Shown here one piece after another: positions 7,423 through 62,962 of a DNA stretch of 64,000 bases. The DNA is from a virus. Lineage: Duplodnaviria > Caudoviricetes. Positions within the stretch are counted from its first letter, which is position 1; every line of letters begins with the position of its first letter. The stretch lies in the IMG/VR virus record IMGVR_UViG_3300020036_011017, positions 10,494 through 74,493 of that record; one strand, given 5' to 3'. The notes beneath the pieces were generated by a model. That model saw nothing but the letters and a program-made list of their open reading frames with translations, searched no databases and was not told the origin of the DNA. Position numbers and translations under genes: made by a program.

Positions 7423-7490
7423 CGTTTTATTAGAGATTCAATATTATAATAGATAAGAATGTCTATTACATAAAAGAATCTCTTTTAACG
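7423..7490. repeat. 68-bp imperfect palindromic element, copy A
   Basis: CGTTTTATTAGAGATTC...GAATCTCTTTTAACG, directly after a stop codon. Confidence 0.7.
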
Positions 7491-7512
7491 CTTTATTTTA
7501 GATTTTAAAATC

Positions 7513-7591
7513 TTTTTGCTAAATAGTTTTTTCTATCAATAGAATTCTATATCTTTACAGAGTAGAAATTTAAAAAATAGAAATTATGACA
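7513..7591 (+). promoter_or_regulatory. Conserved early-type promoter/leader cassette, copy 1
   Basis: Core TATCTTTACAGAGTAGAAATTTAAAA; these 79 nt are identical to 44181-44259. Confidence 0.8.
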
Positions 7592-7879
7592 GCATCAACT
7601 CACACATTCGCAGAAAGAAAAGCTTTTCTAAATGATTTAGAAAATAAAAGCAAAGAAGAGATTAGACAATTTTTAATGCCAAAGCCTACTTTAGAAATTG
7701 AAACTATAAAAGAGCTAGAAATAGGCCAAAAAGTTAAATGGACAGTAGGAGCAGTAGAATCTATAGGAGTAGCTTTAGAAGATAAAGGTGAGATGGTAAC
7801 AGTTATCACTCATTATATTGGAGGAGTTAGATCTAATAGAGAGATTGAAGTTTTAAAAAGTTTATTAATCAAAATTTAA
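7586..7879 (+). CDS. Hypothetical protein
   Basis: 97-aa ORF directly behind promoter cassette 1. Confidence 0.75.
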   Translation: MTASTHTFAERKAFLNDLENKSKEEIRQFLMPKPTLEIETIKELEIGQKVKWTVGAVESIGVALEDKGEMVTVITHYIGGVRSNREIEVLKSLLIKI

Positions 7880-7883
7880 TACT

Positions 7884-8444
7884 ATGAAGTATGAAATTAG
7901 AATAGGAGAATACCCTATTACATTAGAGCACGGTCTAATAGATGAGATTATCAACGTAGATGACTTGACTAGAATTGATACTAGCAATCTTTTCGGAGAA
8001 GCAGTAACAGTTTCAGCAGCCGCAAACAGAGTTGGTCTTATGAAGGCAGAAGTTGAAGGAACTTTAGCAGATCTTAGATTAGATCTAAAAGTCTTTGAGA
8101 ATAATTATCGCCATAAATTAAGAGCAGAAGCTTCTAATAATTCTGGTAACTATACAATTCTAGTAGATGGAGAAGAAGCTAAAGTAAAGCTAACAGAAAA
8201 GGCTTTAGAGTCTTGTTATGAATCTGACTTAGAGTGGATTGAGTTAAAAAGATCAATTAATAAAGCTGAAAAGAATTTTAATTCGCTTTCTGCTCTATAT
8301 TGGTCAATACAAGATAAGTGCAGAAAGCTAAATGGGCTTGTATCTTCTACTACTCCTGAGGAGTTTGTAGGTGGAATAGTTGAAGGAAGGATTAATGGAA
8401 TATTAGTTTCTAAATCAACTAAAAAAGCAGGCTCTATAAAATAA
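7884..8444 (+). CDS. Putative UvsY-like recombination mediator (coiled coil)
   Basis: Helical protein with KLTEKALESCYESDLEW..L..I pattern; lies before the SSB/SbcD/RecA genes. Confidence 0.4.
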   Translation: MKYEIRIGEYPITLEHGLIDEIINVDDLTRIDTSNLFGEAVTVSAAANRVGLMKAEVEGTLADLRLDLKVFENNYRHKLRAEASNNSGNYTILVDGEEAKVKLTEKALESCYESDLEWIELKRSINKAEKNFNSLSALYWSIQDKCRKLNGLVSSTTPEEFVGGIVEGRINGILVSKSTKKAGSIK

Positions 8445-8515
8445 AGTCTAAATCTAAGGCGTTTAGATTAAATTAAAAGTCCTTAAAAAATCAGTATAAA
8501 CAAAAAATTTTTATT

Positions 8516-9457
8516 ATGTCAGGATTAGGAAAAGTACAAGAAGGCGGAGCAACTTTTTTAGTAGTTGCAGGTGGTTACATTTGGGATAAGAAAGCAGGTG
8601 AAGATCACCCAGACTATTCTACTCAAGATTTTGAAAAAGCAGATAAGACAACAGGCACTCGAAAAGGTGCTAGATATGGTGACTTAACTGGTAAGGTTGT
8701 AAAAGTTGCTTTTAGAACTCACGCAGAGTATGGAGAAAGCATCAATGTTACATTTAACGCTGGTGGAGAGCTTTACACTGTATCAATATCTACTAATAAT
8801 AGATATAGTCAAGATCTAATGAAGGCTTTACTTGTAATGGATCTTGAGAAAGTTCTTTTTATGAAGCCTTACGATTTTATCGATGCTAACAAAAAGAGAG
8901 CTCAAGGAATCTCCTTCAAACAGGATGGAGAAAAGTTAGATCTAAAAATTGAAGATGCTCCAAGTGAGGATGCTGAATTCTTCAAAAAAGCAGATAAGAA
9001 AAAAATCAAAAGATTTTTCGAAGATCTAAATGATTGGTTCATTGCTGAGGTAGAGGAAAAAGTTATTCCTTTTATCAAAGCTGATGACTCAGAAGAGCAA
9101 CCCGAAGAAAAAGCACCTGCAAAAGCACCAGCAAAAGTTGCTGAAAAAGTTACTGAAAAAGTTGCTGAAAAAGCACCAGCAAAAGTTGCTCCAAAGCCTG
9201 CAGAGAAAGAAGAGATTTCTGTATCTCCTATCGCTATGAAAAAGGTCTTAAGAGCTTATATAGCTGAAAACTATGAAGGTAAGGAATTGCCATCTCTTGA
9301 TAGAGAGACCTTAGAAGAATGGTATTCTCTATGTCTTCAAGAAGAAGAACTCCCATTCGAAGCTGAAACTGAAGAAGAAGAAACTGAAGAAGAAGAGGAA
9401 GGCGAATTATCTCAGGAAGAGCTAGATGCTCAGCTAGATGCTCTTGCAGAAGAATAA
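8516..9457 (+). CDS. Putative single-stranded DNA-binding protein
   Basis: Beta-rich N-terminal domain, Ala/Lys/Pro linker (KAPAKVAEKV repeats), extremely acidic C-terminal tail; recombination-operon context. Confidence 0.6.
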   Translation: MSGLGKVQEGGATFLVVAGGYIWDKKAGEDHPDYSTQDFEKADKTTGTRKGARYGDLTGKVVKVAFRTHAEYGESINVTFNAGGELYTVSISTNNRYSQDLMKALLVMDLEKVLFMKPYDFIDANKKRAQGISFKQDGEKLDLKIEDAPSEDAEFFKKADKKKIKRFFEDLNDWFIAEVEEKVIPFIKADDSEEQPEEKAPAKAPAKVAEKVTEKVAEKAPAKVAPKPAEKEEISVSPIAMKKVLRAYIAENYEGKELPSLDRETLEEWYSLCLQEEELPFEAETEEEETEEEEEGELSQEELDAQLDALAEE

Positions 9458-9475
9458 AAAGTTAAGAATTAAATC

Positions 9476-9500
9476 AAAGGCCTGCTTCTGTGGGCCTTTT
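9476..9500 (+). terminator. Rho-independent terminator
   Basis: AAAGGCC-TGCTTCTGT-GGGCCTTTT. Confidence 0.65.
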
Positions 9501-9514
9501 AAATTTTAAAAAAT

Positions 9515-9916
9515 ATGATTACAGCACATAAAGTAGAGAGAAAAGAGAGACTTAAAGTTAATATTAACTTCAAGTTTCCAAATCCTCATCTCCATAAATC
9601 TTATGAAGACAAGCGAAGACATTATTCTATGAAGGTAGATAAAGAGGATTTAGTCATTATTAATGAAGAATCAGTCTTATCAGAGAATCTACGTCTAAGA
9701 GCTCTGGTTGTTATTAAAAAGATGTTTGGCACTAAAATTGACTCTTCTCTAACTTATAGAGTAGGAGAGAATTTTGGCTTGCTAAGAATCGGTGATAACA
9801 CTCTTAGAGTATCTTTTTCTTTCAATGAAGATAATACTTTTGATGTTCTAGATAACTCTTCACATATCCTCCAAAGTAAGATCTTAGAGATTACAAAAAC
9901 AAATCAAGATGTCTAG
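9515..9916 (+). CDS. Hypothetical protein
   Basis: 133-aa ORF coupled to the next gene. Confidence 0.7.
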   Translation: MITAHKVERKERLKVNINFKFPNPHLHKSYEDKRRHYSMKVDKEDLVIINEESVLSENLRLRALVVIKKMFGTKIDSSLTYRVGENFGLLRIGDNTLRVSFSFNEDNTFDVLDNSSHILQSKILEITKTNQDV

Positions 9917-10943: not shown

Positions 10944-10944
10944 T

Positions 10945-11922: not shown

Positions 11923-11932
11923 TCTTAATCTT

Positions 11933-12000
11933 CGTTTTACGCGATTATTTTATCTTCTTAATATCAAATATTATATTAAAAAATATAAGGTCTTAAAACA
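11933..12000. repeat. 68-bp imperfect palindromic element, copy B (overlaps a hairpin at about 11985-12020)
   Basis: CGTTTTACGCG...TAATATCAAATATTAT...GGTCTTAAAACA. Confidence 0.65.
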
Positions 12001-12056
12001 AAGATTTTAAGACCTTATTTAACTGATTAAGTTTATAAAAGAGTAATTTTAAAGAT

Positions 12057-14207: not shown

Positions 14208-14209
14208 TT

Positions 14210-14806: not shown

Positions 14807-14964
14807 ATGATTGGAATCTATAAAATAACTAGCCCAACTTTTAAAATCTACATTGGACAAAGCATAGACTTAATTTATCACTAGCAAGCACAGGCAGAGT
14901 ATTTTCAGGAGAGACTAGAAGAAGAATGAGTGAAGCAAGACAGAGAAGAGAGCTAAAAAAATAA
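14807..14964 (+). pseudogene. Internally deleted GIY-YIG homing endonuclease remnant
   Basis: MIGIYKITSPTFKIYIGQSIDLIYH* followed, in another frame, by SGETRRRMSEARQRRELKK*; parallels the intact gene at 3805-4467. Confidence 0.8.
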
Positions 14965-14979
14965 GCCTTGTTTAATTTT

Positions 14980-15060
14980 TAAAAGTTTTTGCTATAAAGT
15001 TTGTTTAATAGAAATCTGCTACATATCTTTACAGAGTAGAAATTTAAAAACAAACAAATT
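14980..15060 (+). promoter_or_regulatory. Promoter/leader cassette, copy 2
   Basis: TTTG, 20 nt, TATCTTTACAGAGTAGAAATTTAAAAAC, then ATG at 15061. Confidence 0.8.
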
Positions 15061-15318: not shown

Positions 15319-15503
15319 TGTCAACAGAAGTAGAGATAGAAGAAGGAGACTCAGTAAAATGGGTCTCTTATGAAGATAAGAAATATAGAGGAACAGCTTT
15401 AAAAGATAGAGGCAAAAAATTCTTAGTTCAAGTTACACACATTGAAAAGCAGAAGACTTTTAGATATGTAGAAGTAGCAATAGAAAAATTAAAAAAGCAA
15501 TAA
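15318..15503 (+). CDS. Small hypothetical protein
   Basis: 61 aa, translationally coupled (TAATG). Confidence 0.65.
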   Translation: MSTEVEIEEGDSVKWVSYEDKKYRGTALKDRGKKFLVQVTHIEKQKTFRYVEVAIEKLKKQ

Positions 15504-15504
15504 T

Positions 15505-15684: not shown

Positions 15685-15686
15685 CT

Positions 15687-16574: not shown

Positions 16575-16918
16575 TGAAATTAGAACAAATTACTCTAAAG
16601 AATATTAAGAGTTTCATTCAAGGCCACGCAAGAGCTTATCTTGATAAAATTAAATTGCTCCCTGAATATACTAGGGAGCAAGTTTTTTATAGAATATGGA
16701 TCTGTAGAGATACGTGTATTCCATCAGGTAAGTGCCAAATCTGTACTTGCTCAGCTATTAAAAAATCTTATGCGACAGCAAGTTGCAATCTAAGCAAGTT
16801 TCCAGATCTTATGTCTGAATCTGAATGGGATTTATTTAAGCTTAAAAATAACATTGATAGCAAAGCGCTTTCTACAATCTTAGATGAGGTAGATAAAATC
16901 TTTTCTAAAAATTCTTAG
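16574..16918 (+). CDS. Hypothetical Cys-rich (putative zinc-binding) protein
   Basis: C-x3-C-x4-C-x2-C-x-C cluster. Confidence 0.65.
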   Translation: MKLEQITLKNIKSFIQGHARAYLDKIKLLPEYTREQVFYRIWICRDTCIPSGKCQICTCSAIKKSYATASCNLSKFPDLMSESEWDLFKLKNNIDSKALSTILDEVDKIFSKNS

Positions 16919-16970: not shown

Positions 16971-17258
16971 ATGAAGCAATTATTAAATCTTACTATTATG
17001 TCTGCATATTCTGACCAAACGTTTTCAAACTTACTAAATGTAGCTTCTTTTAGAACTAAAACATTAGATAGCTTAACTGTTAAGAATAGAATTGAAGTAT
17101 CATCTGCAATAGAGCGTTATACATCTTTGAATAAAGAACGTTTATCTATAGTTGGAAAATTGTATGGTAGTAAGAAATATCAAGCGATTGACGAGAAGTT
17201 ATTTACAAGTATGAAGACTCTAAGAGAAAAAATCGAATCAATACTTAATCTATATTAA
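16971..17258 (+). CDS. Hypothetical protein
   Basis: 95-aa ORF behind cassette 3. Confidence 0.65.
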   Translation: MKQLLNLTIMSAYSDQTFSNLLNVASFRTKTLDSLTVKNRIEVSSAIERYTSLNKERLSIVGKLYGSKKYQAIDEKLFTSMKTLREKIESILNLY

Positions 17259-21724: not shown

Positions 21725-21736
21725 CCTAAAACTAAG

Positions 21737-21803
21737 CGTTTTTAACCATAATCTTCTTAAAACAATCTCTTAATACAATTTTTAAAAACCAAGACTTTAA
21801 ACG
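21737..21803. repeat. 67-bp imperfect palindromic element, copy C (overlaps hairpin 21786-21825)
   Basis: CGTTTTTAACC...CTCTTAATACA...GACTTTAAACG followed by TTTATTTT. Confidence 0.6.
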
Positions 21804-21843
21804 TTTATTTTGAAGTCTTGGTTTTATCATTTTAAAAGTTTTC

Positions 21844-21928
21844 TAAAAGTTTTTGCTATAAAATTAGTTTAATAGAAATCTGCTACTTATCTTTACAGAG
21901 TAGAAATTTAAAAAACAAATCATTATGA
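21844..21928 (+). promoter_or_regulatory. Promoter/leader cassette, copy 4
   Basis: 85 nt with two mismatches relative to 46464-46548. Confidence 0.8.
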
Positions 21929-28881: not shown

Positions 28882-28895
28882 AGAATAAAATTAAG

Positions 28896-28963
28896 CGTTT
28901 TACGACAAGATTTTTATATTGTTAATAACTTATTCAACGTTGTAAAATACACGTTTTAAAATG
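28896..28963. repeat. 68-bp imperfect palindromic element, copy D
   Basis: CGTTTTACGAC...GTTAATAAC...CGTTTTAAAATG with AAAATTAAG / CTTAATTTT flanks. Confidence 0.65.
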
Positions 28964-29063
28964 CTTAATTTTAATTTTATAATCTTTTATTAAGTAGCTC
29001 TAATTATCTCTTTTTATATTCAATAATTTGTATTATTTTTATCTCCAGTTTTAAAACCAAGCT

Positions 29064-31849: not shown

Positions 31850-31928
31850 TAAAAATTTATAGCAAAAAGTTTGTTTAATAGAAATATGCTACTTATCTTT
31901 ACAGAGTAGAAATTTAAAACTAAACAAA
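31850..31928 (+). promoter_or_regulatory. Promoter/leader cassette, copy 5
   Basis: TTTG, 20 nt, TATCTTTACAGAGTAGAAATTTAAAAC. Confidence 0.8.
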
Positions 31929-32890: not shown

Positions 32891-32913
32891 AGCCTTTTTA
32901 AGATATAAAATCT

Positions 32914-32981
32914 TCATTGTATAACATTAAAATTCATTTTTAATACAAGTTATTAATAAGTTAAAATTATCTCTTAAAACG
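32914..32981. repeat. 68-bp element, copy E (left arm degenerate)
   Basis: ...TTTTTAATACAAGTTATT...TTATCTCTTAAAACG followed by TTTATTTT. Confidence 0.55.
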
Positions 32982-33065
32982 TTTATTTTTCAAAGATAAT
33001 TTTAGCAATCTCAATATTTCTTAGAGCTTGTCAGGCTGCGTAAATAGTGAGATTTTTTTGACTCA

Positions 33066-33090
33066 ATACATAAGATGAAAAAGCACTTTT
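33066..33090 (+). repeat. 25-bp direct repeat upstream of the RNAP gene (candidate phage-RNAP promoter)
   Basis: ATACATAAGATGAAAAAGCACTTTT; 24/25 identical to 35879-35903. Confidence 0.7.
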
Positions 33091-33508
33091 AGATAGTGCA
33101 TAGGTTCTTATTTTTTTCTACCTAATCAAAAAAGAATTTTACTGCGTCATACGAATCAAAATTGCTATTTTAGCATTTTGCTTTGGAGACATAGATTTTA
33201 AAGAGGATAGTTTTAAAATATGGATTAGCGAGCTTAAAGCCCAAAAACCAGTTTTTAAAAACATTCTTTTTTATCTACGTCTCCAAATCAGGATTTTAAA
33301 ACATCATAAAAGAGTCCATTGTTATCTTTTGATAACATATATACGCATTTTTATAGCAGCATTTTCAAAATAAAAACCAGCGCTCAAAGCCACCTGACTA
33401 AAGCTAGACTTAGACAAAATAAAATTTCTCAATATTTTTTAGATCTTTCTAGGATAATAGATATAGAAACATTAATTTTATCCAAGAATTAAAAAACCAA
33501 TTTCTAAT

Positions 33509-35827
33509 ATGAATAGTCAAAGCAGTTACGAAGAAAAAATGAAGCAAAGAGGAGAGAGCAAAGTGTGGAAGTCTACATACTCTCGAACTGGGGCAAATAA
33601 ATCAATACCGCAGATCCAAATAGGTCAGCAACTAATAATGGAAGAAGCAATTAGATTAGTTCCAATCTTTCGAGATTGGATAGATTTTAAGAGCGCAAAG
33701 CATTATAGAGGAGAGTTGAAAGCATACTTTGTTGAAGATCAGTTTTTACTACAAAAATTAGTAGAATCAATGCTGCTTCTTATCTCCTCATCAAGTCTAT
33801 CCATAAAGCCTGGAAAGATAACTACAAGACATAAAAGCATAGAATTAATAAGAAAGAAAATAATGCCTGAGAGCTCATTCGAGTTTGTCTGGCGCTTTTT
33901 GGAAATCCTTGTTGAGGAAAGCAAGTACTTCAAAATAGAGGAGCAGAAGTCAGTTGAGTTCGGTATGCTAAAAACTAACCTTAGATACTCTTCAACACTT
34001 CCAGAGATCATTCTTGAAAAATTAACCTTAGAAGCATCATTTGCTTTCTTTCCAGAGCCTATGGTCATCGAGCCAATAGATTGGTCTTATAACGACGAAG
34101 ATGGAGAGCTAAAAGGTGGTTACATAGATCAACAGTTCGAGATGGTTCGATTAAATTATCAAAAACCAGACTACTCAAAATACTCAGAAGAGATCTTTGC
34201 CTCAGTTAACTACATCCAAAAAGTTCCCTGGAGAATTAACTCACAGGTCCTTGAGATTTTAAAGCAAGATCTAAAGATGCCTGAAAAAGCCGATTTCATA
34301 AAAGCTGAGTATCCACAATCAGAAGAAGGTCTTTGGGACTTAGATCTAAAAGATGAGAACATCAAACTTTCTAAAGAAGAGATTGAGAAAATAGAAAATC
34401 GAAGAGCTGAGGTTAGAAGTCAAATTGAACTTTACTCAGCAGAAGCTAGAGATTTTGAATCTGCACTAGGAAAGTACAGAGCTACTAAACTAGCAATTGG
34501 AATAGCAGAGTGTTACCAAGACGAAGAAAAAATCTACTTCCCTCATTCATTTGACTTTAGAGGCAGAATCTACCCAATACCAGTAGGCCTCTCACCTCAG
34601 GGATCTGATGCAGTAAAAGCATTACTTGAATACTATCGTGGCGAACCATTGAATGAAGATGGCGAGGCTTGGGCGTGGGCTTATCTTTCAAGCTTGTATG
34701 GAGATGATAAGATCTCATTTAGTGAAAGAGTCACAAAAGGAAAAGAGATCTATTTAAACGCTGATTATAAAGAGGCAGATGAGCCTTATCAATTCTTAGC
34801 ACATCAGTTAGAACTAAAAGCTTTCTTACTAAATCCTGAACACGTTTTTAAAGGCAGAGTACATCTTGACGCCTGTAACTCAGGCTCTCAATTCACATCA
34901 GCAATGACTGGAGATCTAGCAGGTTGTAAAGCGACTAACGTCATTCCATCAAGTGAGAGACAAGATGCTTATCTACTTGTAGCAGAAAGATCTTTGAAGT
35001 TCACTAAGCAGATGATACTTGAGAATTTAGATGCAAAGGAGAATGAAGCATTAGTTTTATTCAGAGATTTGCTAGAGAAAGATGGTAGAAAAATCTGTAA
35101 GACACCAGTTATGGTTTCTAACTATGGAGGCACAGAGGGTGGAAGATCTGAATTAATTTGGGATTTATTAAGAGAGCTGAATGTAGATAGAGCTTTTATC
35201 ACTAAGAAGAACGCATCCTTGTATAGCAAAATAGTTGGAAGTTCAATTACTGGAATTTTAAATGGAGGAAAGGCCTTTGAGAAATATATCCACTTAATGA
35301 ATAATGCTATTACTAAGGAGAATAAAGCTATTACTTGGACTACAGCTGATGGCTTTCACGTTGTGCATTTAAAACAGAAAGAGCTAAAGCCTAAGCAAGT
35401 TGCTTGTCAATTACCAGGGTCAAGAAAGATAACTACTATTCTAAAGAAACTTTATTCAGAAGATATTTCTCCTGTGAAGATGAAGTCTGCTATATCTCCA
35501 AATGTAGTTCACTCATTAGATGCTGAGCTTTTAAGAAGAGTAGCACTGCAGATGAAGCGTAGAAGAGTTATGGATACTGATTGGATCCACGATAGTTTTG
35601 GAGCTCATCCAAACGATATAGATGATTTACTACACGTCACTAAGACAGAATTCAGCAAGATGATGCAAGGTAAGCCATTGGAGTTGTTAGATAAACAGCT
35701 TAGAGAGCAAGCAGATGGATCTAAAAAAGTATTGAAACTGCTAAGTTCTATTAGCATTCCAAACTTAAATGGCTTTGAGAATAACAGATTAGAGGAAGTT
35801 TTAGAGTCAGATTGGTTCTTTTCGTAG
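33509..35827 (+). CDS. T7-family single-subunit DNA-dependent RNA polymerase
   Basis: FDFRGRIYP, motif A LDACNSGSQF, motif B RKICKTPVMVSNYGG, WTTADGF, PNVVHSLDA, motif C IHDSFG and C-terminal DWFFS. Confidence 0.95.
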   Translation: MNSQSSYEEKMKQRGESKVWKSTYSRTGANKSIPQIQIGQQLIMEEAIRLVPIFRDWIDFKSAKHYRGELKAYFVEDQFLLQKLVESMLLLISSSSLSIKPGKITTRHKSIELIRKKIMPESSFEFVWRFLEILVEESKYFKIEEQKSVEFGMLKTNLRYSSTLPEIILEKLTLEASFAFFPEPMVIEPIDWSYNDEDGELKGGYIDQQFEMVRLNYQKPDYSKYSEEIFASVNYIQKVPWRINSQVLEILKQDLKMPEKADFIKAEYPQSEEGLWDLDLKDENIKLSKEEIEKIENRRAEVRSQIELYSAEARDFESALGKYRATKLAIGIAECYQDEEKIYFPHSFDFRGRIYPIPVGLSPQGSDAVKALLEYYRGEPLNEDGEAWAWAYLSSLYGDDKISFSERVTKGKEIYLNADYKEADEPYQFLAHQLELKAFLLNPEHVFKGRVHLDACNSGSQFTSAMTGDLAGCKATNVIPSSERQDAYLLVAERSLKFTKQMILENLDAKENEALVLFRDLLEKDGRKICKTPVMVSNYGGTEGGRSELIWDLLRELNVDRAFITKKNASLYSKIVGSSITGILNGGKAFEKYIHLMNNAITKENKAITWTTADGFHVVHLKQKELKPKQVACQLPGSRKITTILKKLYSEDISPVKMKSAISPNVVHSLDAELLRRVALQMKRRRVMDTDWIHDSFGAHPNDIDDLLHVTKTEFSKMMQGKPLELLDKQLREQADGSKKVLKLLSSISIPNLNGFENNRLEEVLESDWFFS

Positions 35828-35878
35828 ACTAAGGCTCTTCATTAAGTGCTTAGTAATCAAGACCTAAAGCTACACTCC

Positions 35879-35903
35879 ATACATAAGAAGAAAAAGCACT
35901 TTT
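35879..35903 (+). repeat. 25-bp direct repeat downstream of the RNAP gene
   Basis: ATACATAAGAAGAAAAAGCACTTTT. Confidence 0.7.
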
Positions 35904-36232: not shown

Positions 36233-37402
36233 ATGAGTTTTGAGCTTCAAAATTACACTGAACTTACCCAAGTAGAAACTCTACAGGATACTAATCTTGG
36301 GATTATGAAATGGGGAAGAAGCAATTCATTTCCTCAAACTTTAGTTAACTTAATAGAGCAGTCTCCCTCAGCTAAACCAGCTGTTAAGAGGACAGCTAAG
36401 TTTTTAAAAGGAAAAGATTTTGAGAATAGCGATTATATTGTTTCTCCAAAAGGTCTTACTTTAAGACATATCGTTTCAGCAATGGCTGATGAGTACGCAG
36501 TTTTTGAAGCATTCGCTTTACATTGCAATTTTAATCTTGAGGGTAGAGTTACTTCTATTGCTCCAATTAAGATTCCAGAAATTAGATTCAATGAGTTCGA
36601 CGAACTTAATACAGCTAGTAAATTAGGTTACCATCCTGACTTTGGTCGTAATGCAGTAGAGAGAAAAACTATTGCTACAGTAGTAACAAGAGGAAAGATT
36701 AAATGGATTAATAAGTTCAATCCTGCTTCTTCTATTAAACAGATAGAGGAAACAAGAGGAGGCATCTCTAATTACCAGGGGCAGTTACTTTATTTTTCTG
36801 AAAGTGGAATGTCTAGATACCCTATTCCAACTCTACAGGCTCAGACAAATTATGTTCTATCAGATATAGAAAATAGTATCTTAGTGAGAAAAGAGACAGC
36901 AACTGGCTTTATCAATACCTATCTTCTAAAAACTATGCTAGAACATAGTGACGTAAATCTTATTGCTCTAGAAAACTCTATTGCAGATGCTCAAGGAGCA
37001 AGAGGTTCGGGGAAAGTAATCACTTTATCCGGCCTTTCTCCAGAAGAGATGGAGCATACAATGCTTGAAGAAATTGCTTCGGGTACTGGTTCAGCAGGCT
37101 CAGTCATTGAAAACTGTACTAAAACTTTTGATTTAGATCAAAAAGTAATAACAGGAGCTTACTTAATACCACCAGCCTTAGCAGGTATCGACTATAAAAC
37201 TGGCTTTAGTTCTAACGATCTTAGAGAAGCTTATTTCGTATTCAATGCAACAACAGAGACAGGAAGAGAAACAATTGAAGCAGAGCTAAATAGAATTCTA
37301 AAAAATTCTGTCTTCGATGTAAAGTCAATCAAGTTAGAAAAACTCACTTTAGATGAAGCAATTGCTCCAACATCTAAAGCTAAAGCAAAGAAAAATGTAT
37401 AA
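36233..37402 (+). CDS. Portal protein (probable)
   Basis: KWGRSNSFPQ, ETATGF, GARGSGK and I..AY.IPP.LAG pattern seen in Bacteroidota phage portals; size 389 aa. Confidence 0.75.
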   Translation: MSFELQNYTELTQVETLQDTNLGIMKWGRSNSFPQTLVNLIEQSPSAKPAVKRTAKFLKGKDFENSDYIVSPKGLTLRHIVSAMADEYAVFEAFALHCNFNLEGRVTSIAPIKIPEIRFNEFDELNTASKLGYHPDFGRNAVERKTIATVVTRGKIKWINKFNPASSIKQIEETRGGISNYQGQLLYFSESGMSRYPIPTLQAQTNYVLSDIENSILVRKETATGFINTYLLKTMLEHSDVNLIALENSIADAQGARGSGKVITLSGLSPEEMEHTMLEEIASGTGSAGSVIENCTKTFDLDQKVITGAYLIPPALAGIDYKTGFSSNDLREAYFVFNATTETGRETIEAELNRILKNSVFDVKSIKLEKLTLDEAIAPTSKAKAKKNV

Positions 37403-37904
37403 TCCTGACAACACAAAAAAGCTAGTCATAGTTGATATAGCTAGAGCAATGCAGGACTACTGCTCTATCCAGCCTGATATAGATCCAACTAAAATGCAAG
37501 CAGCAGAATTGGTTGCTCAAAATATTGATCTTGTTAGATTGATTGGTAAGGATAATGTAGCAAGATGTATAGATCCAGTAAACTTAGATGATGTTCCTCC
37601 AGAGGCAGATATAGCATTAAGAGAGCTGGTTTTAATTGCATTATGCTACTATACTTATTCAAGGCTTCTAAAGATGTTTCCTGGCACTATGACAGATTCA
37701 GGATATGTAGTTGAAGAAGGAGCAGCAAGTAAAGCTTTACTAGGAAATACTGCAGCAGAATACTATACTGTAGCAGAAACTTTTATGAAGGATGTAATGG
37801 AATTTCTTAAATTAGAAGATCCAACTACAGAAAAAGTAAAAGAATTAAATCTTACTCCAAACGTTCGTACTTTTGGAGGTAATGAACGCAGAGCCTCGAA
37901 CTAG
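37395..37904 (+). CDS. Putative head-tail adaptor (probable start 37395)
   Basis: Helical protein directly after the portal. Confidence 0.5.
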   Translation: MYNPDNTKKLVIVDIARAMQDYCSIQPDIDPTKMQAAELVAQNIDLVRLIGKDNVARCIDPVNLDDVPPEADIALRELVLIALCYYTYSRLLKMFPGTMTDSGYVVEEGAASKALLGNTAAEYYTVAETFMKDVMEFLKLEDPTTEKVKELNLTPNVRTFGGNERRASN

Positions 37905-37920
37905 TAAGACATCTCATAAA

Positions 37921-37988
37921 GTTTATAAGACATTCTTTTTGTCTTTTAATATCAATTATTATCAGAACAAAAAGATTGTCTTAAAACG
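37921..37988. repeat. 68-bp palindromic element, copy F (best-paired arms)
   Basis: GTTTATAAGACATTCTTTTTG...AACAAAAAGATTGTCTTAAAACG. Confidence 0.7.
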
Positions 37989-37999
37989 GAGATAATACA

Positions 38000-38635: not shown

Positions 38636-38711
38636 GACAGATATAGCTCAGTTGGTTAGAGTACTACTTTGTGAGAAGTAGAAGCCGTAGGTTCGAGTCC
38701 TGCTATCAGTC
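38636..38711 (+). tRNA. tRNA-His(GTG) with G-1:C73 and an 8-nt anticodon loop
   Basis: 8-bp acceptor GACAGATA/TATCAGTC, D arm GCTCAGTTGGTTAGAGT, anticodon arm CTACT-TTGTGAGA-AGTAG, T arm GTAGG-TTCGAGT-CCTGC. Confidence 0.75.
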
Positions 38712-38743
38712 CGAAACATTATTAACTAAAACAAAAACAAGAG

Positions 38744-41414: not shown

Positions 41415-41657
41415 TTATAGATTTCCGTACCCGTTACCTTTCGAGTTCAATTGCTTGAACTTTCCATCAGTACGTTTTTTGCCTATTAAGACTTGAGTCA
41501 AAACACCCATACCATATTGATCTACTATCTGTTGTTTTATAACAGTTACGTTTGCACCTTGAGCTATAAACTCATCTCTTTGAGTTTTATAACAAATCTT
41601 ATTTAGCTTTGATTGTTCAGCTTTAAGATTTTTAGCAAGTGTTTCAATTGGTTCCAT
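41415..41657 (-). CDS. Hypothetical protein
   Basis: 80 aa, directly behind a minus-strand promoter cassette. Confidence 0.75.
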   Translation of the reverse strand: MEPIETLAKNLKAEQSKLNKICYKTQRDEFIAQGANVTVIKQQIVDQYGMGVLTQVLIGKKRTDGKFKQLNSKGNGYGNL

Positions 41658-41735
41658 GGTGTTTGTTTTTAAATTTCTACTCTATAAAGATAAGAAATTC
41701 TAATCATAGAAAAAACTATTTTGCTAAAACTTTTT
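41658..41735 (-). promoter_or_regulatory. Promoter/leader cassette, copy 6 (minus strand)
   Basis: Reverse complement contains TTATCTTTATAGAGTAGAAATTTAAAAACAAAC. Confidence 0.8.
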
Positions 41736-41798
41736 GAAAGATATTATTTGTTCCAATTGGTTTTGGAGATCATTGTATTGATACAGTATTATAATAAG

Positions 41799-41866
41799 CG
41801 CTGTGATTAAAAGTCTTTTTGGTTATATACATTTAATTACATTCATATAATGAATCTCTTTTAACG
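41799..41866. repeat. 68-bp element, copy H
   Basis: Ends GAATCTCTTTTAACG, identical to the end of copy A; begins CG exactly 68 nt away. Confidence 0.6.
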
Positions 41867-41998
41867 CTTCTTTTTCTTTGGTGTTAGATGAGTATTTTTC
41901 TTTCTAACTTTCTGCCATTTCATTTTTCCTTCTTGCATTGCTGAGTCGAATTCTTTTGGCTGTCTTATTAATTCTGGGTCTCTTGTTGATGGTGCCAT
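41861..41998 (-). CDS. Small basic protein (45 aa, not in the ORF track)
   Basis: MAPSTRDPELIRQPKEFDSAMQEGKMKWQKVRKKNTHLTPKKKKR with an A-rich leader. Confidence 0.45.
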   Translation of the reverse strand: MAPSTRDPELIRQPKEFDSAMQEGKMKWQKVRKKNTHLTPKKKKR

Positions 41999-41999
41999 A

Positions 42000-43380
42000 T
42001 TATTTTTATTTACTTTATGAGATAAGTTAATTCACAAAATCCAATTGGACCTCTGAGAGATCACAGGAGCGACAAACATAATTCTCCAATCTATTGGTAC
42101 CAACTCTTGGAGATAATTGTTTAGAAAGCCAATTTGCGATGACGCTCGAAACTAAAATTCTTGATGTATTGATACATTAGCTATAAAGATCATTACTTAG
42201 AGGAGCTATAAAAAGCTTTTCTAAAAAACAACTATTTAGACAAGAATTTTAAAAGCTACATAGCTCTCGTCTAAGCGATCCTTAGGAGGCGACTGTCCTT
42301 AGGGCATTGAGGCCAAAAAAGTTCTTAGCAAATTCGGTGGTCTAAGCTATCTTAGCAGAGCTATTTTAGCGCTCTCCATTTGTAAAAACCAATTTGCTAA
42401 ATCAGGTTTGGCAGAACGCTTCTAAAAAAGTCTTTTAGAAAACAACTATTTTCTGTTAAAGTTTAGCTCGAAACTAAATTTCTATTAAACAAGTTTTTTC
42501 TTAGAAAACTTCTTTGTAAATTTATACTGGTGTCTAGTGCTAGGTACTGTGTATAACAAGGTACCTGCCACTAGTGGGGTGTAGAAAATTCTTCTTGTGC
42601 AACTTGTGTAATCTAAATTTTCTATTCTCTAAAATCTTCTTTGCTAAAATTTGGTTTTTAGAAAACAAGTTTCTAAGAAAAACTTTAACAGAATAAATTT
42701 GGATAATAGAAGAGTTGTTTAGAAGACCTCTGTTGCAAAACCTGATTTTAGAAAAACGGTTTTTCTATAACTGATTTTTACAGACAGCTGTAGATAGAAT
42801 TCATTTCGATAGACAGATCATTGTAGATCGTCTAATACCCCCAAGGTGAGAAGAAAAAATCTATCGCTCTAAGACATCTTAGAATAGCTAAATTCTTTTA
42901 GCTAAAAATAGTTGGATCTTATTATAGAAATCTCTATCTTTATGCTGATGCACTTTTTTGAAATGAGCTAAATAGATTAGCTATAATCATTTAGAAAAAT
43001 TCTATTGTGGGTATGGTTTGCCTAAAAAGATTTTAGCTCACAGGCTTTTAGAATGGCTCAAGTTAGACTAGGGCACCAGCATAAAGGTAGTGAATAGTTT
43101 TCTATTAGACAACTATTTTGCTAAGAAATTTTAGAGAAATTCTATCATTTGTATTGCTGAGAATCGAGTATACTTTTATGATTGAATAATGTACTTAATG
43201 AGATGTTCTTTTTAAACAGAAAAATTTGATAGAATTTAGCTTTAAATCAATAGATTTTAGAAAATTCTATTTTCGCGCAACCAGTGATCTGAATGTCGCT
43301 TTTAAGGGGGTAAACATATAAATATTTTAATCTAATCAGGCTTTGCTAAAACTGGTTTTTGAAGCGAGATTGATACACCA
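42000..43380. other. Long repeat-rich non-coding region (candidate origin, terminus or packaging region)
   Basis: About 1.4 kb with no credible ORF; long imperfect inverted repeat 42384-42464 / 42680-42764; several motifs reused elsewhere in the window. Confidence 0.65.
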
Positions 43381-44117: not shown

Positions 44118-44180
44118 CCTGTGTTTAGTTCTAGGTACTAGGTAATACACAGTACCTGCTACTAGAAAATTTCTAAAAGT

Positions 44181-44259
44181 TTTTTGCTAAATAGTTTTTT
44201 CTATCAATAGAATTCTATATCTTTACAGAGTAGAAATTTAAAAAATAGAAATTATGACA
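44181..44259 (+). promoter_or_regulatory. Promoter/leader cassette, copy 7
   Basis: Identical to 7513-7591. Confidence 0.8.
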
Positions 44260-46278: not shown

Positions 46279-46461
46279 ATGGAAGCTAAACTTGTGACTA
46301 TACAGCGATGGTTCAGTTCAGATGGTAAGACATTCTGGTATTGGATAGTAGATGAGTCTAACGAAGGCATAGATGGCTTCAGTAAAAAGTCACTAGCTAT
46401 TGATGCTATCAAGAGATGGAGCTATATTAGAACTAATAAGATTATCACTGATAGAAGATAA
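46279..46461 (+). CDS. Small hypothetical protein
   Basis: 60-aa ORF. Confidence 0.6.
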   Translation: MEAKLVTIQRWFSSDGKTFWYWIVDESNEGIDGFSKKSLAIDAIKRWSYIRTNKIITDRR

Positions 46462-46463
46462 TT

Positions 46464-46548
46464 TAAAAGTTTTTGCTATAAAATTTGTTTATTAGAAATC
46501 TGCTACTTATCTTTACAGAGTAGAAATTTAAAAAACAAATCATTATGA
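46464..46548 (+). promoter_or_regulatory. Promoter/leader cassette, copy 9
   Basis: Near-identical to 21844-21928. Confidence 0.8.
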
Positions 46549-47358: not shown

Positions 47359-47375
47359 ATAAGATTGATAATCTT

Positions 47376-47444
47376 CGTTCTACGAAATAAGAATTAACTT
47401 TTAATATGATTGCATTGATTGAATAAAATTATCTCTGTAAATCG
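47376..47444. repeat. 69-bp element, copy G (followed by hairpin 47453-47478)
   Basis: CGTTCTACGAAATAA...TTTAATATG...TTATCTCTGTAAATCG. Confidence 0.6.
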
Positions 47445-47628
47445 ATATTTTTAAAACCAGATTTAGCGATCTGGTTTTCTTTTGCTCTCATTTTCTGAGG
47501 AAAGTTTAGAGCACCAGGATAAAATTAGTGAATAGTTTTCTAAGAAACTAATTTTTATGCTAAGAAATTTTCTATTTATTTAACATCTCATAAAGTGAGA
47601 GCATTTACAAACCCTTAAAAAATTTATT

Positions 47629-55855: not shown

Positions 55856-55858
55856 GCT

Positions 55859-58624: not shown

Positions 58625-60549
58625 TGAGTCAGTTAGAAAAAGCTGAGAGCAAAACGCAGACTGATCTAACTAGCTCTCAAAGAAAGAATGGAGACTATCC
58701 TAAAGGAAAGATAGTCTTAAAAGGAATACCTATAACTATTGAGAATCCAAAAGGTTCTATTAGAAGTGGTTATTCTCCAGAGGGAGTTTTTTGGAAGTCT
58801 ATCTTAAACTATACTTATGGTTTTATAGATGACTCTATGGGGAGTGATGGAGATGAGATAGATATTTTTTTAGGACCTATCGCAGGTTCTAAAGAAGACT
58901 TTCTTGTCTACATTATAAGCCAAGTCCATCCTAAAACTAAACTCTTTGATGAGTATAAAGTTATGTTTGGTTTCAGCAATGCTAGAGAAGCTAGAGAAGC
59001 TTATTTCAGTTGTTATGAAGAAGGCTGGAAAGGATTTGGATCTATATCTCAAATCTCACTTTCTAGCTTTGCTACTTGGACTAAAACAAAGAGCAATGAA
59101 TTCTATATTAATCAATTAAATCCTAAAAAAAATGAAGTAGTGGCAGATCAAAATGAAAGACTTAAACTCATAAAGTTAGAGGGAGAAGTATTCGAGGATA
59201 AAACCTTATTAGACCTACAAAACCAGGCAGGTGACTTAAAGTTAATTAACACTCTAATAATGTCTATAGCATCTCCAGGAGGAGATGTAAGCGAGGGCAT
59301 TAAGATTATGATGTGGTTAGATTACTTATCCTCAATAGGAATAAAAGTAGTCACTATAGTTACTTCTAACGCTTATAGCATTGCCTCATTGATTATGTTA
59401 GCAGCAGATCACACTTTAATAGCTAAGGATGCTGACGTAATGGTACATAATCCAATGGTGCCTGAGTTAAAGTTAGTTAATGCTAATGAGCTAGAAGAGC
59501 ACGTAAAAAATCTAAGAGAGTTAGAGTCAACTATGTACGATCTTTATGAGATCTTTACTGACTTATCAATTGAAGAGATAAGAGAGTTAATGGATAATGA
59601 AACTTATCTTTCCGCTGATGAGGCAGTTAGATTAGGATTTGCTGACGAAATCGCAAATATTAAGAAGCAGCCAAAAGTTATGGCTATCAGTAAAAACAAA
59701 ATTTTAGATATGAAAAAAACGTTAAACATTTTAAACAAAGTAATCGCCTTGGTTGGTAATTCTAATATTGTCAACCAGCTATATTACAATGACGAAGGAG
59801 GACAGTTAGAAATCTATCAGTTAGATCCTTCAACTTATGCAAAAGGAGATCGAACTTCAATTGAAAATGGAGAAGTAAAATTACAAGATGGTTCAGTTTT
59901 GACCATTGAAAATTTTATTATTAGCTCTATTGAAAAAGGAGTTCCTGCAGTAGAAGCAGCAACACCAGTTGCTCCAGTTGTTCCTGTAGATCCTGCTCTT
60001 GCACCTGCAGCAGCACCAGAGGCAGTAGCAGGCTTTAATGTAGGACCAGCACCTGCAGCACCAGCAGAAAAACCTGCTGAGATGAAAACTGAAACTACAA
60101 AAACTGAGACAGTAAAAACTGAGCCAGTAGCCTCACCTGTTGCAGTAGTTGTAGCACCTGTAGATCCATTAGCAGTGGCGCCTGTAGATCCATTAGCTGC
60201 TCCAAAAGCAGTAGATCCAATAGTTGCTCCAGTACCAGAAGTTGAGTCTCCTGAGGAAGAAGCTGCTGAAGTTGAAATCTCTAAAGTTGAATACGACGCT
60301 TTAGTAGAGATGTGTACTAAACTAGCTGAGAGAGTTAGAGTTTTAGAAGAAGGAAGCGGAACAATGAAAGAGCAAATGACTTCAGCTTTACAGTTTGAAG
60401 AAGTAGCAACTCAGGCTATTGATTTGATAGCTAGAAATACATCTTCAAATTTCGTACCATCAGCTAAAGCAGTTGTAGGGCCAGCACCAACTGGATCTAT
60501 TTTTGAACAAGCAAAAGCAAGAGCAGCAGCAGCAAAAGCCGCTAAATAA
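58624..60549 (+). CDS. Fusion of inorganic pyrophosphatase-like (InPase) domain, ClpP/S14 prohead protease and Ala/Pro/Val-rich scaffold
   Basis: GIPITIENPKGS.R..YGFIDDSMGSDGDEIDIFLG..FDEYKVMFGF (InPase); SPGGDV, AYSIAS, MVHNP and ETYLSADEAVRLGFAD (ClpP); low-complexity C-terminus. Confidence 0.8.
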   Translation: MSQLEKAESKTQTDLTSSQRKNGDYPKGKIVLKGIPITIENPKGSIRSGYSPEGVFWKSILNYTYGFIDDSMGSDGDEIDIFLGPIAGSKEDFLVYIISQVHPKTKLFDEYKVMFGFSNAREAREAYFSCYEEGWKGFGSISQISLSSFATWTKTKSNEFYINQLNPKKNEVVADQNERLKLIKLEGEVFEDKTLLDLQNQAGDLKLINTLIMSIASPGGDVSEGIKIMMWLDYLSSIGIKVVTIVTSNAYSIASLIMLAADHTLIAKDADVMVHNPMVPELKLVNANELEEHVKNLRELESTMYDLYEIFTDLSIEEIRELMDNETYLSADEAVRLGFADEIANIKKQPKVMAISKNKILDMKKTLNILNKVIALVGNSNIVNQLYYNDEGGQLEIYQLDPSTYAKGDRTSIENGEVKLQDGSVLTIENFIISSIEKGVPAVEAATPVAPVVPVDPALAPAAAPEAVAGFNVGPAPAAPAEKPAEMKTETTKTETVKTEPVASPVAVVVAPVDPLAVAPVDPLAAPKAVDPIVAPVPEVESPEEEAAEVEISKVEYDALVEMCTKLAERVRVLEEGSGTMKEQMTSALQFEEVATQAIDLIARNTSSNFVPSAKAVVGPAPTGSIFEQAKARAAAAKAAK

Positions 60550-60615
60550 AAGTTAATAAACAGAAGTAGAGAGTACTTAAAAAATCTTAATAATTAATCA
60601 TTAAAAAAACAGATT

Positions 60616-61599
60616 ATGGCATTTAACGTAGGAGGAGCACCAGTAGGAATTTTAGCAAGAGCTTTAACAGGAAACATCTTTGTAGAGAAATCCTTAGCTT
60701 ATATGAATGAAGGAGATAAAGATGGTTATAACGCTTACAAGCACGACATTAAAAATGTCTTGAGAGCGAGATCAGCTAATCCAGCTAACACTGTAGCTAA
60801 CACATCTCAGAAGCAAGCCTTCAAAAGAAATTTAGTAGTAGTAGAGTCTTTCGAAACTTTCGATCCAGCTGAATACTACTCTCACTGGAGAGAATTCCAG
60901 CCAGAGGGAGCTTTCCAATGGGAAGGTTTACCAACTGAAGTACAATCTACTTTAGAAGAGTTGATGTTAGGCACAGCTGCCGAGGCTACAGAAGATTTAT
61001 TAACTAATGGAACAGCTCTAGTTACTGGATTAGTTCCTCAGTTGAAATCTACAGCTTACACAGCTTTACAAGGAGCCGCAGCAACTCCAACTCAAACTGT
61101 AATGAATACAGCTATCGCTTTCCGTGCTCACTCAGCTGGCGCTGGTGTAGCTTTAGGAGAAGTTTTGACTGTTGATAATGTCTTCGCTAAATTGGAGATC
61201 TTAATCAAGTATCAAACTAAAGCAATGAGAAAAAGAATGAATCGTAAATTTATGATCTCTGCAGGAACCGCTGATTTAATCAGAGAGGCTCAACGTTTGA
61301 AATTAAACTTCAAAGGTGTAGACGTTACAGAAGAAGGCATTATGAGATATGCTGGTTACGATTTGATTGAAAACTTATCTTTTCCAGATAATACAATCTT
61401 ATTCTGTTCTATGTCTGGAGACATCAAAACTGATGCTATCCAATTAGGAACTTCAAGAAGTGCTGACTTTAATAATCTTGAAGTTAACAGAGTTTCTAAC
61501 TTTGGTAGAGAGTGGGGTATGTTATTAACTTTCGCTTTGGACATCTTTGTTGTTCGTCCTGAGGAAGTTTGTTTCTATACTACTTCAGCTTTAATCTAG
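60616..61599 (+). CDS. Major capsid protein (probable)
   Basis: 327 aa immediately after the protease/scaffold gene and followed by a strong terminator. Confidence 0.7.
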   Translation: MAFNVGGAPVGILARALTGNIFVEKSLAYMNEGDKDGYNAYKHDIKNVLRARSANPANTVANTSQKQAFKRNLVVVESFETFDPAEYYSHWREFQPEGAFQWEGLPTEVQSTLEELMLGTAAEATEDLLTNGTALVTGLVPQLKSTAYTALQGAAATPTQTVMNTAIAFRAHSAGAGVALGEVLTVDNVFAKLEILIKYQTKAMRKRMNRKFMISAGTADLIREAQRLKLNFKGVDVTEEGIMRYAGYDLIENLSFPDNTILFCSMSGDIKTDAIQLGTSRSADFNNLEVNRVSNFGREWGMLLTFALDIFVVRPEEVCFYTTSALI

Positions 61600-61624
61600 T
61601 ATTAAGCTGATAGAGTAAAAATTT

Positions 61625-61656
61625 AAGGCACCAATTAATTTTGGTGCCTTTTTTTT
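61625..61656 (+). terminator. Rho-independent terminator
   Basis: AAGGCACCAA-TTAATT-TTGGTGCCTT followed by a T run. Confidence 0.8.
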
Positions 61657-61677
61657 AATAAATAAAAAACTTAAAAA

Positions 61678-62247
61678 ATGAGTTGTATAACAGGTATTAC
61701 TAATGGTATCGCTAAAGACTGTGCTACTATTAATGCAGCTATTGGAGCAGATAAAGATTTAATCTTAGTCAACTATGCTGACTTTGATAAAGTAAAAACT
61801 TTCGACCCAACTAATAGAGAGACAGCAGGAAGTAATATCAAAGGACTTAAAAATATCTTTCTAAAGCTTGGTGCTGGAAAATACATTTTCGAGGGAACAG
61901 ACTACTCTGTAGTCCCAAGTATTACACCTGAGGTTAGAGAAGATGGAGGACTTTGGTATACTCACCAAATCTTATTTACTATCTATAGTAAAAAAGCTAC
62001 TGATAGAAAAACAATAGAGGCTCTTGGGGGCTCAATTGTAATAGCAGTTACGAAAGATCGCTCTACTGGACTTTATGAATTATTTGGCTCAGACCAAGGG
62101 TTAAAGGTTTCAGCTATAGAACGTCCTTACACAGGAGCTCAAAACTCTAACTTCTATCAAGTAACAATAGTTACTCCAGAAATTGGCGTTGTGAAAGAGT
62201 CAGGACTTGCAGAACTTTCAGCGCTTGTAACTACTAACTTAGTTTAG
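61678..62247 (+). CDS. Major tail-tube-like protein, paralog 1
   Basis: MSC.......KDC....AIGADKDLILVNY; 189 aa. Confidence 0.6.
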   Translation: MSCITGITNGIAKDCATINAAIGADKDLILVNYADFDKVKTFDPTNRETAGSNIKGLKNIFLKLGAGKYIFEGTDYSVVPSITPEVREDGGLWYTHQILFTIYSKKATDRKTIEALGGSIVIAVTKDRSTGLYELFGSDQGLKVSAIERPYTGAQNSNFYQVTIVTPEIGVVKESGLAELSALVTTNLV

Positions 62248-62273
62248 TAGATTAATAAATAAAAACTTAAAAA

Positions 62274-62843
62274 ATGAGTTGTATCACAGAAATTTTAAAA
62301 GGAGTTACAAAAGATTGTAAAGCCTTTAATGCAGCTATTGGTTCTGATAAAGATCTAATCTTAGTTAACTACGAGGATTTTGATAAAGCAGCAACTTTAG
62401 CTATAGGAAACAGAGAGATAGATGATTTAGATAATAATCTTGATGGGTTAACTAGCGTTATTCTAAAAACTGGAGCTATTCAGCATATCTTTGAAGGGAC
62501 AGACTATTCAGTTGTACCTACAGTTACTCCTGAGATAAAAGAAGATGGGGATATCTGGTATACTCATCAAGTCTTATTCACTGTTTATAGCAAGTTAGCT
62601 AAAGACAGAAAAACTTTAGAAGACCTAGATGATTCTAGAGTAATAGCTATTGTGAAAGAAAGATCTACTGGACTTTATGAATTATTTGGAATGGATCAAG
62701 GATTGAAGGTTTCAGCAATAGAGAGAGCCTACACAGGAGCTCAAAATTCTAACTTCTACCAAGTAACTCTTCTAACTCCAGAGGCTGGTATTGCTAAAGA
62801 ATCTACCTTAGGAGAATTAGCTGTTAATATTCAGGTACTTTAA
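62274..62843 (+). CDS. Major tail-tube-like protein, paralog 2
   Basis: 189 aa, colinear with paralog 1. Confidence 0.6.
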   Translation: MSCITEILKGVTKDCKAFNAAIGSDKDLILVNYEDFDKAATLAIGNREIDDLDNNLDGLTSVILKTGAIQHIFEGTDYSVVPTVTPEIKEDGDIWYTHQVLFTVYSKLAKDRKTLEDLDDSRVIAIVKERSTGLYELFGMDQGLKVSAIERAYTGAQNSNFYQVTLLTPEAGIAKESTLGELAVNIQVL

Positions 62844-62894
62844 TTTATCTTTATATCCTAACAGCCTCAGACATTCTTATCTATGTGTAATAGG

Positions 62895-62962
62895 CTCTAG
62901 GAGAGATTCTTTAGTTAATTTGATAACAATATATCCCTTTAAAAAGATAATCTCTTAGAGAG
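62895..62962. repeat. 68-bp palindromic element, copy I
   Basis: CTCTAGGAGAGATTC...AATCTCTTAGAGAG, with AGG/CCT flanks extending the pairing. Confidence 0.55.

Follow-up and report, generated by a model that had tools for sequence, protein, structure and literature searches.

The 64,000-nucleotide stretch analysed here (hereafter the window) spans bases 10494-74493 of the IMG/VR record IMGVR_UViG_3300020036_011017, the linear, 93% complete genome (74,493 bp) of an uncultured marine phage that we call G000. Our subject is a family of imperfect palindromes of about 88 nt, with about 10 copies, that lie in its intergenic regions at the ends of transcription units. The GC content of the window is about 32% and nearly all of its genes are on the plus strand; the only leftward unit comprises the gene 41415-41657 and a 45-amino-acid open reading frame (ORF) at 41864-42004 (minus strand). 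The genes include those of a 772-amino-acid T7-type RNA polymerase (33509-35827), of RecA, and of an HU-like protein with an HU domain. DNA and protein similarity place G000 near the group of Cellulophaga phage phiST (Cbastvirus) and Tenacibaculum phage Larrie, and its host is thus probably a member of the Flavobacteriaceae. The closest relative is L012, in which a stretch of about 20 kb is syntenic with the window. No closer one was found: the best identity of the primase was 68% in IMG/VR and about 60% in the JGI metagenomes, and the phage collection gave no near match. G003, an 83-kb phage with terminal repeats, has a primase 56% identical to that of G000. Several relatives, including G001, G004, G005 and phiST, also encode a T7-type polymerase.

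The elements form a genuine homologous repeat family. An earlier inspection of these letters without database searches (the sequence-only reading) had listed nine sites, named here by window position, and a possible 70-nt variant. All nine sites are family members: seven are solid (7423, 11933, 21737, 28896, 37921, 41799, and 62895), and two are degraded copies (32914 and 47376) that kept homology while their palindrome is gone (gapless pairing 15/46 and 20/46; fold z about 0). The variant (43297..43366) had to be dropped because it has no BLAST link to the others, a fold z of -0.2, and no match to R1, the covariance model that we built on a MAFFT alignment of ten copies from G000 and G003. 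The unit is also longer than the 68 bp first proposed, since conserved A-rich and T-rich extensions belong to it and bring it to about 88 nt.

Several analyses separate the family from chance. All-against-all BLASTN of the intergenic regions joined eight copies (7423, 11933, 28896, 32914, 37921, 41799, 47376, and an additional degenerate one upstream of the window, at genome positions 1879-1962) over 70-114 nt, centres included, with E values from 1e-5 to 8e-12. Shuffled intergenic sequences gave one high-scoring segment pair below 1e-4 across ten replicates. When position weight matrices (PWMs) were built leaving one element out, 12 of the 18 arms ranked 36 or better among 148,940 genome positions, and when a matrix was made from right arms only, its 25 best reverse-strand matches included four left arms, all at a distance of exactly 63-64 nt. 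Copy 21737 is weakly joined to the others by BLASTN. Copy 62895 has no BLAST link inside the genome, and its membership follows from the covariance model (76 bits) and from a position shared with a copy of G003, G003b. The matrix ranks, the BLASTN comparison with shuffles, and an arm distance of 59 in both G000 and G003 agree with the earlier claim of a non-random family with fixed spacing.

Palindromy by itself discriminates poorly. The ten sequences originally listed gave a weak consensus on alignment and no consensus structure with RNAalifold, and only four of them (7423, 28896, 37921, and 62895) fold significantly into a long hairpin. Gapless palindrome scans alone failed to pick out most copies, and the yield of a generic palindrome finder was close to the shuffle background. 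We therefore defined the family by homology and covariation. R1 searches covered the window and the 10.5 kb preceding it and revealed no extra copy. In Rfam, only tRNAs exceeded the gathering threshold and no family matched the hairpin element; a sub-threshold mir-208 match on copy 37921 just reflects its long hairpin. The element has a GC content of 18-31% and pairs 57-66% of the positions of its 88-nt span, and a TAATA-like centre, already remarked upon, occurs in about five of the nine copies.

Weight-matrix matches in relatives were at background level before whole related genomes were compared, and a right-arm pattern scan of IMG/VR gave three unrelated chance matches. G003 carries three copies in gene orientation, two of which have a left arm identical to the window consensus AAGCGTTTTAAGAGA. 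Each of the three comes after a stop codon; the distance is 3-6 nt for two of them and about 50 nt for G003b, which has a canonical terminator in between. A scan of the genome, its relatives, and shuffled controls, the check suggested in the sequence-only reading, set the family apart: a strict two-arm search of 1.04 Mb matched only G000 and G003, always with a start-to-start distance of 59 (55-63 were allowed), and five block-shuffles of six genomes gave one match in total. G003b follows an orthologue of the tail-tube gene 62274-62843 (64% identical), which is the site of 62895; this orthologous placement makes 62895 a genuine, if diverged, member. The alignment underlying R1 is nearly gap-free. 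In metagenomic relatives, R1 matched hairpins of 65-90 nt, mostly of similar length: two in L086, with arms changed on both sides relative to G000 but still pairing, and others in L069, L036, L040, and L072.

A palindrome of about 75-90 nt also follows the polymerase gene in L012 (16758-16847) and L001 (6274-6349), with near-perfect arms of 13-17 nt and a divergent centre. Its left arm resembles that of 62895, and it may be a distant member of the family.

The sequence-only reading preferred paired protein-binding half-sites with a free spacer over hairpins, and the substitution patterns point the other way. Among the window copies alone, 56.6% of the cells paired against 53.3% after shuffling, a value reached by 13 of 500 shuffles. 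With the addition of G003 (alignment A4), pairing rose to 62.4% (expected 55.2 +/- 1.8) and there were 53 both-side changes against 33, neither value being reached in 500 shuffles. In an alignment of 13 copies from four phages (A5), pairing was 66.1% (54.0 +/- 1.4), both-side changes numbered 94 (50 +/- 5), and the covariation score was 0.353 (0.176), again with none of 500 shuffles as high; moving the partner by 1-3 columns lowered pairing to 36-45%. The three relatives' copies added to A5 were chosen by a structure-aware model, which favours hairpins, whereas those of A4 were chosen by sequence, and the effect is present there too. The centres diverge between copies but co-vary, so as to stay self-complementary, and in 62895, L086, and L069 the arms themselves were replaced on both sides with pairing kept. 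Interior covariation and both-side arm changes thus indicate a hairpin rather than two sites read by their sequence. This argues for a conserved hairpin, against both independent protein half-sites and terminal repeats read by a transposase.

Part of the evidence would also fit an element acting as DNA, either with arms bound by a phage or host protein or as an extruded cruciform, with a role in genome organisation, replication, or recombination. The sequence of the arms and their spacing are conserved between G000 and G003, the copies are spaced fairly evenly along the genome, and single strands fold as DNA too (z -2.7 to -6.1 for four copies). Furthermore, the element is symmetric and shows neither a G-U bias nor polarity with respect to transcription, copy 41799 being inverted relative to it when compared with 7423. 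However, independent half-sites have no need of an interior that co-varies for pairing, nor do they account for the replacement of arm sequence with complementarity retained. Stems rich in mismatches and, in several copies, AT-rich unpaired centres would disfavour cruciform extrusion from duplex DNA. A DNA-level role also leaves unexplained the strict placement of the copies after stop codons on the transcribed strand, and we consider it quite unlikely.

This placement is very regular. All family copies, including the one in the minus-strand unit, have a stop codon 0-23 nt upstream on the transcribed strand (51 nt for 62895), in agreement with the initial description of copies directly following stop codons. 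A T-rich tract lies behind the stem in six to seven of the nine copies. Eight of the nine have a strong hairpin, which is either long or short, and where one kind is present the other tends to be missing: 7423, 28896, and 62895 have a strong long hairpin with no adjoining short one, and 11933, 21737, 32914, and 47376 combine weak long pairing with a strong compact hairpin with a T-run on the right arm or just after it. Relatives have ordinary terminators at equivalent sites, namely a short GC terminator after the HU-like gene of L012 (site of 28896) and a canonical terminator after the single tail-tube gene of phiST (site of 62895). Unit boundaries in phiST generally consist of a terminator plus a promoter. 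Within the stretch syntenic with L012 there are four copies, each at the edge of a non-syntenic block.

Promoters are frequent neighbours of the element. Three copies (7423, 21737, and 41799 on the minus strand) are directly followed by a promoter cassette, as had been recognised from the start, and other promoter-like repeats follow other copies. Hairpin and cassette are nevertheless independent repeats: five of the eight cassettes have no hairpin, among them those at 15028, 31898, 44222, and 46512, and six of the nine hairpins have no cassette. The right arm resembles the -7 region of the cassette, and we considered it as a host -7 promoter box. This was ruled out because three copies sit directly upstream of a full cassette and because in three the right arm contributes one side of a terminator hairpin. 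The suggestion of hairpin-type promoters for the phage polymerase fails on anatomy and position: promoters of the N4 type have a stem of 5-7 bp and a 3-nt loop, lie upstream of early genes, and serve a giant virion polymerase, whereas the stems found here reach up to 42 bp, come after genes, and occur with a 772-amino-acid T7-type enzyme.

Among the roles listed originally, termination or insulation fits the genomic context best. We propose, with a probability of about 0.5, that the element is an RNA 3'-end hairpin that works as a terminator or attenuator, as a processing or stability site, or as both. We picture the module as an A-rich lead-in to a stem that has a GC-anchored base and as many as about 42 pairs, most of them A-U; its top varies but stays self-complementary, and the exit is T-rich. 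Each copy would be transcribed as the final part of a gene block, and the long stem-loop formed in the RNA would set the 3' end of the message. It might do so by halting or slowing the polymerase, by presenting double-stranded RNA for cleavage of the RNase III type, or by both means, after which the leftover hairpin would protect the message. Duplication or recombination would have multiplied the module within the genome, together with the borders of accessory gene blocks. Where the long pairing has been lost, its place would be taken by a compact hairpin that uses the same right arm or lies just behind it. One may speculate that in 11933 and 21737 the left arm competes with the short terminator and acts as a translation-sensed antiterminator. 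We infer both that RNA is the active form and which enzyme reads the element.

Several observations weigh against this proposal. Two copies, 37921 and 62895, have no T-run behind them. A canonical terminator precedes the G003b element and four window copies have one behind them, so that the long hairpin is not simply "the" terminator. Two of the nine window copies are decayed, and mean pairing is just 57-66%. We found no excess of G-U over A-C at the non-Watson-Crick positions (25 against 33, the same ratio as in the slid controls) and no consistent bias between sense and antisense folding energies; all three tests of strand asymmetry were null, and nothing marks the sense RNA as the selected strand. 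Finally, R1 finds no copy in G001, G004, G005, or phiST, despite their polymerase of the same type.

A more specific possibility is that the hairpin is a boundary signal of a new, conserved class, reserved for the T7-type RNA polymerase of the phage, with unit ends that are double. A short host-type terminator and a long phage-type hairpin, in either order, would then insulate transcription by the host and the phage polymerase separately, and the conserved base of the stem would be read by the phage polymerase or by an RNase of phage or host. We regard this as unlikely. For single-subunit polymerases, the element is in any case a candidate for use as a long terminator or insulator. Transcript boundaries are uncharted for phages of marine Flavobacteriia, and for phages that mix host-type promoters with their own T7-type polymerase. 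An element backed by covariation and absent from Rfam offers a handle on how messages are ended, attenuated, or processed in these abundant phages, and it may mark the module borders of accessory-gene exchange.

The copies could also be selfish or recombination-driven palindromic repeats, similar to MITE or REP elements or to the cassette linkers of T4-type phages, for which gene ends are the only tolerated sites and which have no function of their own beyond, at most, an incidental terminator effect. Their number varies between phages: G000 has about 10, G003 has 3, 10 kb of L086 contain at least 2, and no copy was detected in G001, G004, G005, or phiST. They range from intact to decayed, and just one orthologous site has been demonstrated. 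They lie at the edges of variable blocks, and within G000 the palindromic consensus accounts for most of the pairing, as the narrow excess over shuffles given above indicates. PeSL cassettes (PMC2839356) provide a precedent. On the other hand, G000 has neither a tyrosine recombinase (PF00589, searched for in six frames) nor a Y1 transposase (PF01797), and the four best copies show no visible target-site duplication. The compensatory divergence of the arms in 62895, L086, and L069 would not be tolerable for ends read by a transposase. Phages whose proteins share about 56-64% identity have preserved both the length and the pairing, which implies selection, and the arm motif had only its 3 chance matches in IMG/VR. 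We thus find this explanation rather unlikely. If the element were merely a decaying selfish palindrome, it would document how regulatory-looking repeats multiply in compact phage genomes.

The PeSL cassettes of T4-type phages are the nearest described phenomenon (PMC2839356). They too are repeated intergenic stem-loop modules that separate a stop codon from the following promoter and border variable blocks of accessory genes, and they have plausibly spread by recombination, which they may mediate. In PeSL the promoter and the stem-loop form one unit, whereas here they are separate repeats; the stem of our element is much longer and AT-rich, and the phage has a Flavobacteriia-type host and its own T7-type polymerase. 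REP/BIME and Correia-type repeats (PMC2267715) are likewise dispersed palindromic intergenic repeats at gene 3' ends and can terminate or stabilise transcripts. They belong to host chromosomes rather than to a phage lineage, and the family described here differs by its low copy number, its covariation across phage species, and the lack of a RAYT-type transposase. A REP/RAYT reading is unsupported, given the absence of PF01797 from G000 and of visible target-site duplications at the four best copies.

The length range of the elements, their conserved ends, their variable self-pairing centres, and their position directly after ORF stops also recall attC recombination sites, whether of integrons or of CALIN arrays, which have been reported for some virulent marine phages (PMC9892861). 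The core-site motifs are missing, however: RYYYAAC ... GTTRRRY ends occur in none of ten copies on either strand, and the conserved triplets run the other way round, from a 5' GTT to a 3' AAC. G000 lacks the integrase (the PF00589 search above), and instead of a cassette array there are copies 4-16 kb apart with core replication and virion genes between them, not single promoterless cassettes. An attC-like function is very improbable.

Mechanistically, the closest analogues are the T-phi terminator and the RNase III sites of phage T7. In T7, RNase III cuts long transcripts at hairpins between genes. These hairpins resemble the element in being imperfect, longer than 20 bp, similar to one another, and situated just after coding regions, and they leave a protective 3' stem, as the element would under our proposal. 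They are shorter and have a defined internal loop, whereas the element has no recognisable RNase III boxes. As to terminators, the T7-type polymerase of T7 uses hairpin-plus-U signals (bioRxiv 10.1101/2021.01.11.426313). Like intrinsic terminators and T-phi, the element is a stem-loop directly after a gene end, with A-rich sequence leading in and T-rich sequence leading out in most copies. One conserved element comes after the highly expressed tail-tube gene, comparable to T-phi behind the capsid gene of T7, and the ordinary terminators of relatives occupy the same sites. Yet intrinsic terminators have a compact GC-rich stem and a short loop, in contrast with some 88 nt, at most 42 mostly A-U pairs, and many mismatches here. 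Two phage copies have no T-run, the element often adjoins a separate canonical terminator, and the copies make up a homologous repeat family of fixed length. The right-arm word ATCTCTT is one base from the T7 class II word ATCTGTT; we rejected this connection because the word is not avoided inside genes (21 sense-strand occurrences for 20 expected).

The copies differ in their state of preservation and surroundings; all are on the plus strand except 41799. The best-preserved is 28896 (28886..28973; -23.6 kcal/mol, z -5.2, 31 of 46 gapless pairs, R1 67 bits), which lies 14 nt past the stop of the HU-like gene. Copy 37921 (37911..37998; R1 66 bits) is a near-continuous 30-bp hairpin (-26.2 kcal/mol, z -7.1) located 16 nt past the stop of ORF 37353-37904 and at the left edge of a block of about 800 nt that L012 lacks. 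The highest R1 score is that of 62895 (62885..62972; -29.1 kcal/mol, z -5.6), between tail-tube paralogues 2 and 3; both of its arms are off consensus yet still complementary, and by position its counterparts are G003b and the canonical terminator after phiST gp028. Copy 7423 (7413..7500) is an 88-nt hairpin (-19.4 kcal/mol, z -4.0, R1 48 bits) homologous to 41799 and others. It includes the stop of ORF 7044-7421 in its 5' flank and ends in a T-rich tail, after which comes the promoter cassette 7500-7585. The copy of the leftward unit, 41799 (41789..41876, minus strand; R1 54 bits on that strand), has a right arm 89% identical to that of 7423. Its arm contains the TAA stop of the lysine-rich, unannotated 45-amino-acid ORF (42004-41864), and a minus-strand promoter cassette (41745-41666) comes after it.

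In the remaining four copies the long pairing is weaker. Copy 11933 (11923..12010; R1 53 bits) lies 10 nt past the RecA stop and has moderate long pairing; its BLAST partners are 37921, 32914, 28896, and 47376 (E 4.5e-9 to 3e-6), and its right arm also supplies the 5' side of a strong short hairpin at 11985-12018 (3' flank z -5.0). In 21737 (21727..21813; R1 53 bits) pairing is confined to the outer arms, the left of which the right-arm matrix recovered at 63 nt. The right arm and the downstream sequence form a 17-bp terminator-like hairpin (21785-21825, inverted repeat I18; flank z -4.7), and the promoter cassette 21833-21924 follows. Copy 32914 (32904..32991) is decayed: its left arm is lost (rank 52,323) and its right arm is perfect, with the top PWM score among all arms. 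Its homology to 47376 (E 8e-12 over 114 nt) and to 11933 (E 4.5e-9) is clear, its right arm pairs with downstream sequence in a short hairpin at 32962-33004 (I20), and a candidate phage-polymerase promoter lies at 33061. The other decayed copy, 47376 (47366..47454), retained the left arm and lost the palindrome (fold z +0.4); a short hairpin and a T-run follow at about 47453-47478 (3' flank z -3.1).

The promoter-plus-leader cassette is a repeat of 75-80 nt with a Bacteroidota-type -7 box, present in 8-9 copies, including 7500-7585, 14975-15060, 21833-21924, 31863-31928, 41666-41745 (minus strand), 44163-44253, and 46455-46544. These are up to 96-97% identical to each other and far better kept than the hairpin copies, which suggests that they evolve in concert or spread recently. 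A private version of the cassette, along with a private upstream repeat, is present in L012. Another word of 25-37 nt, starting ACACTCCATAC, flanks the polymerase gene (33061-33091 and 35867-35903) and recurs at genome positions 2822-2858 (L019). Similar words occur around the polymerase genes of L012 (about 16620-16650 and 17030-17060) and of L001, and the word is a candidate promoter for the phage polymerase. In phiST (L015), long palindromes of the early region (4749-4855 and 5553-5671) are two inverted copies of that phage's own promoter box (GTATCTTTAT), which is another way of forming long intergenic palindromes within this phage group.

We also made some observations on tRNA-like sequences and other repeats. 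ARAGORN predicts a tRNA with a four-base anticodon (gtga) and an enlarged loop at 38637-38712, where Rfam recognises a normal tRNA (53 bits); it could be frameshift-suppressor-like or a quirk of the prediction. Just past copy 37921, the segment 37990-38090 contains a T-arm-like GGTTCGAAGCC and resembles a tRNA remnant, for which ARAGORN gives no call. Among the matches listed, L092-L171 (e.g., L099:1575-1651) contain a 76-78-nt repeat abundant in Vibrio, Grimontia, Colwellia, Shewanella, and Psychromonas. The outer arms of this Vibrionaceae-type repeat are identical to the idealised 10-nt arms of the phage element and its inner stem co-varies; it often adjoins the ends of tRNA genes, has no Rfam match, and has a GC-rich core unrelated to the phage element. 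Lastly, the primase-helicase gene of L012 (11164-12199) has an insertion of about 1 kb relative to that of the window, which may be an intein or a homing-endonuclease insert.

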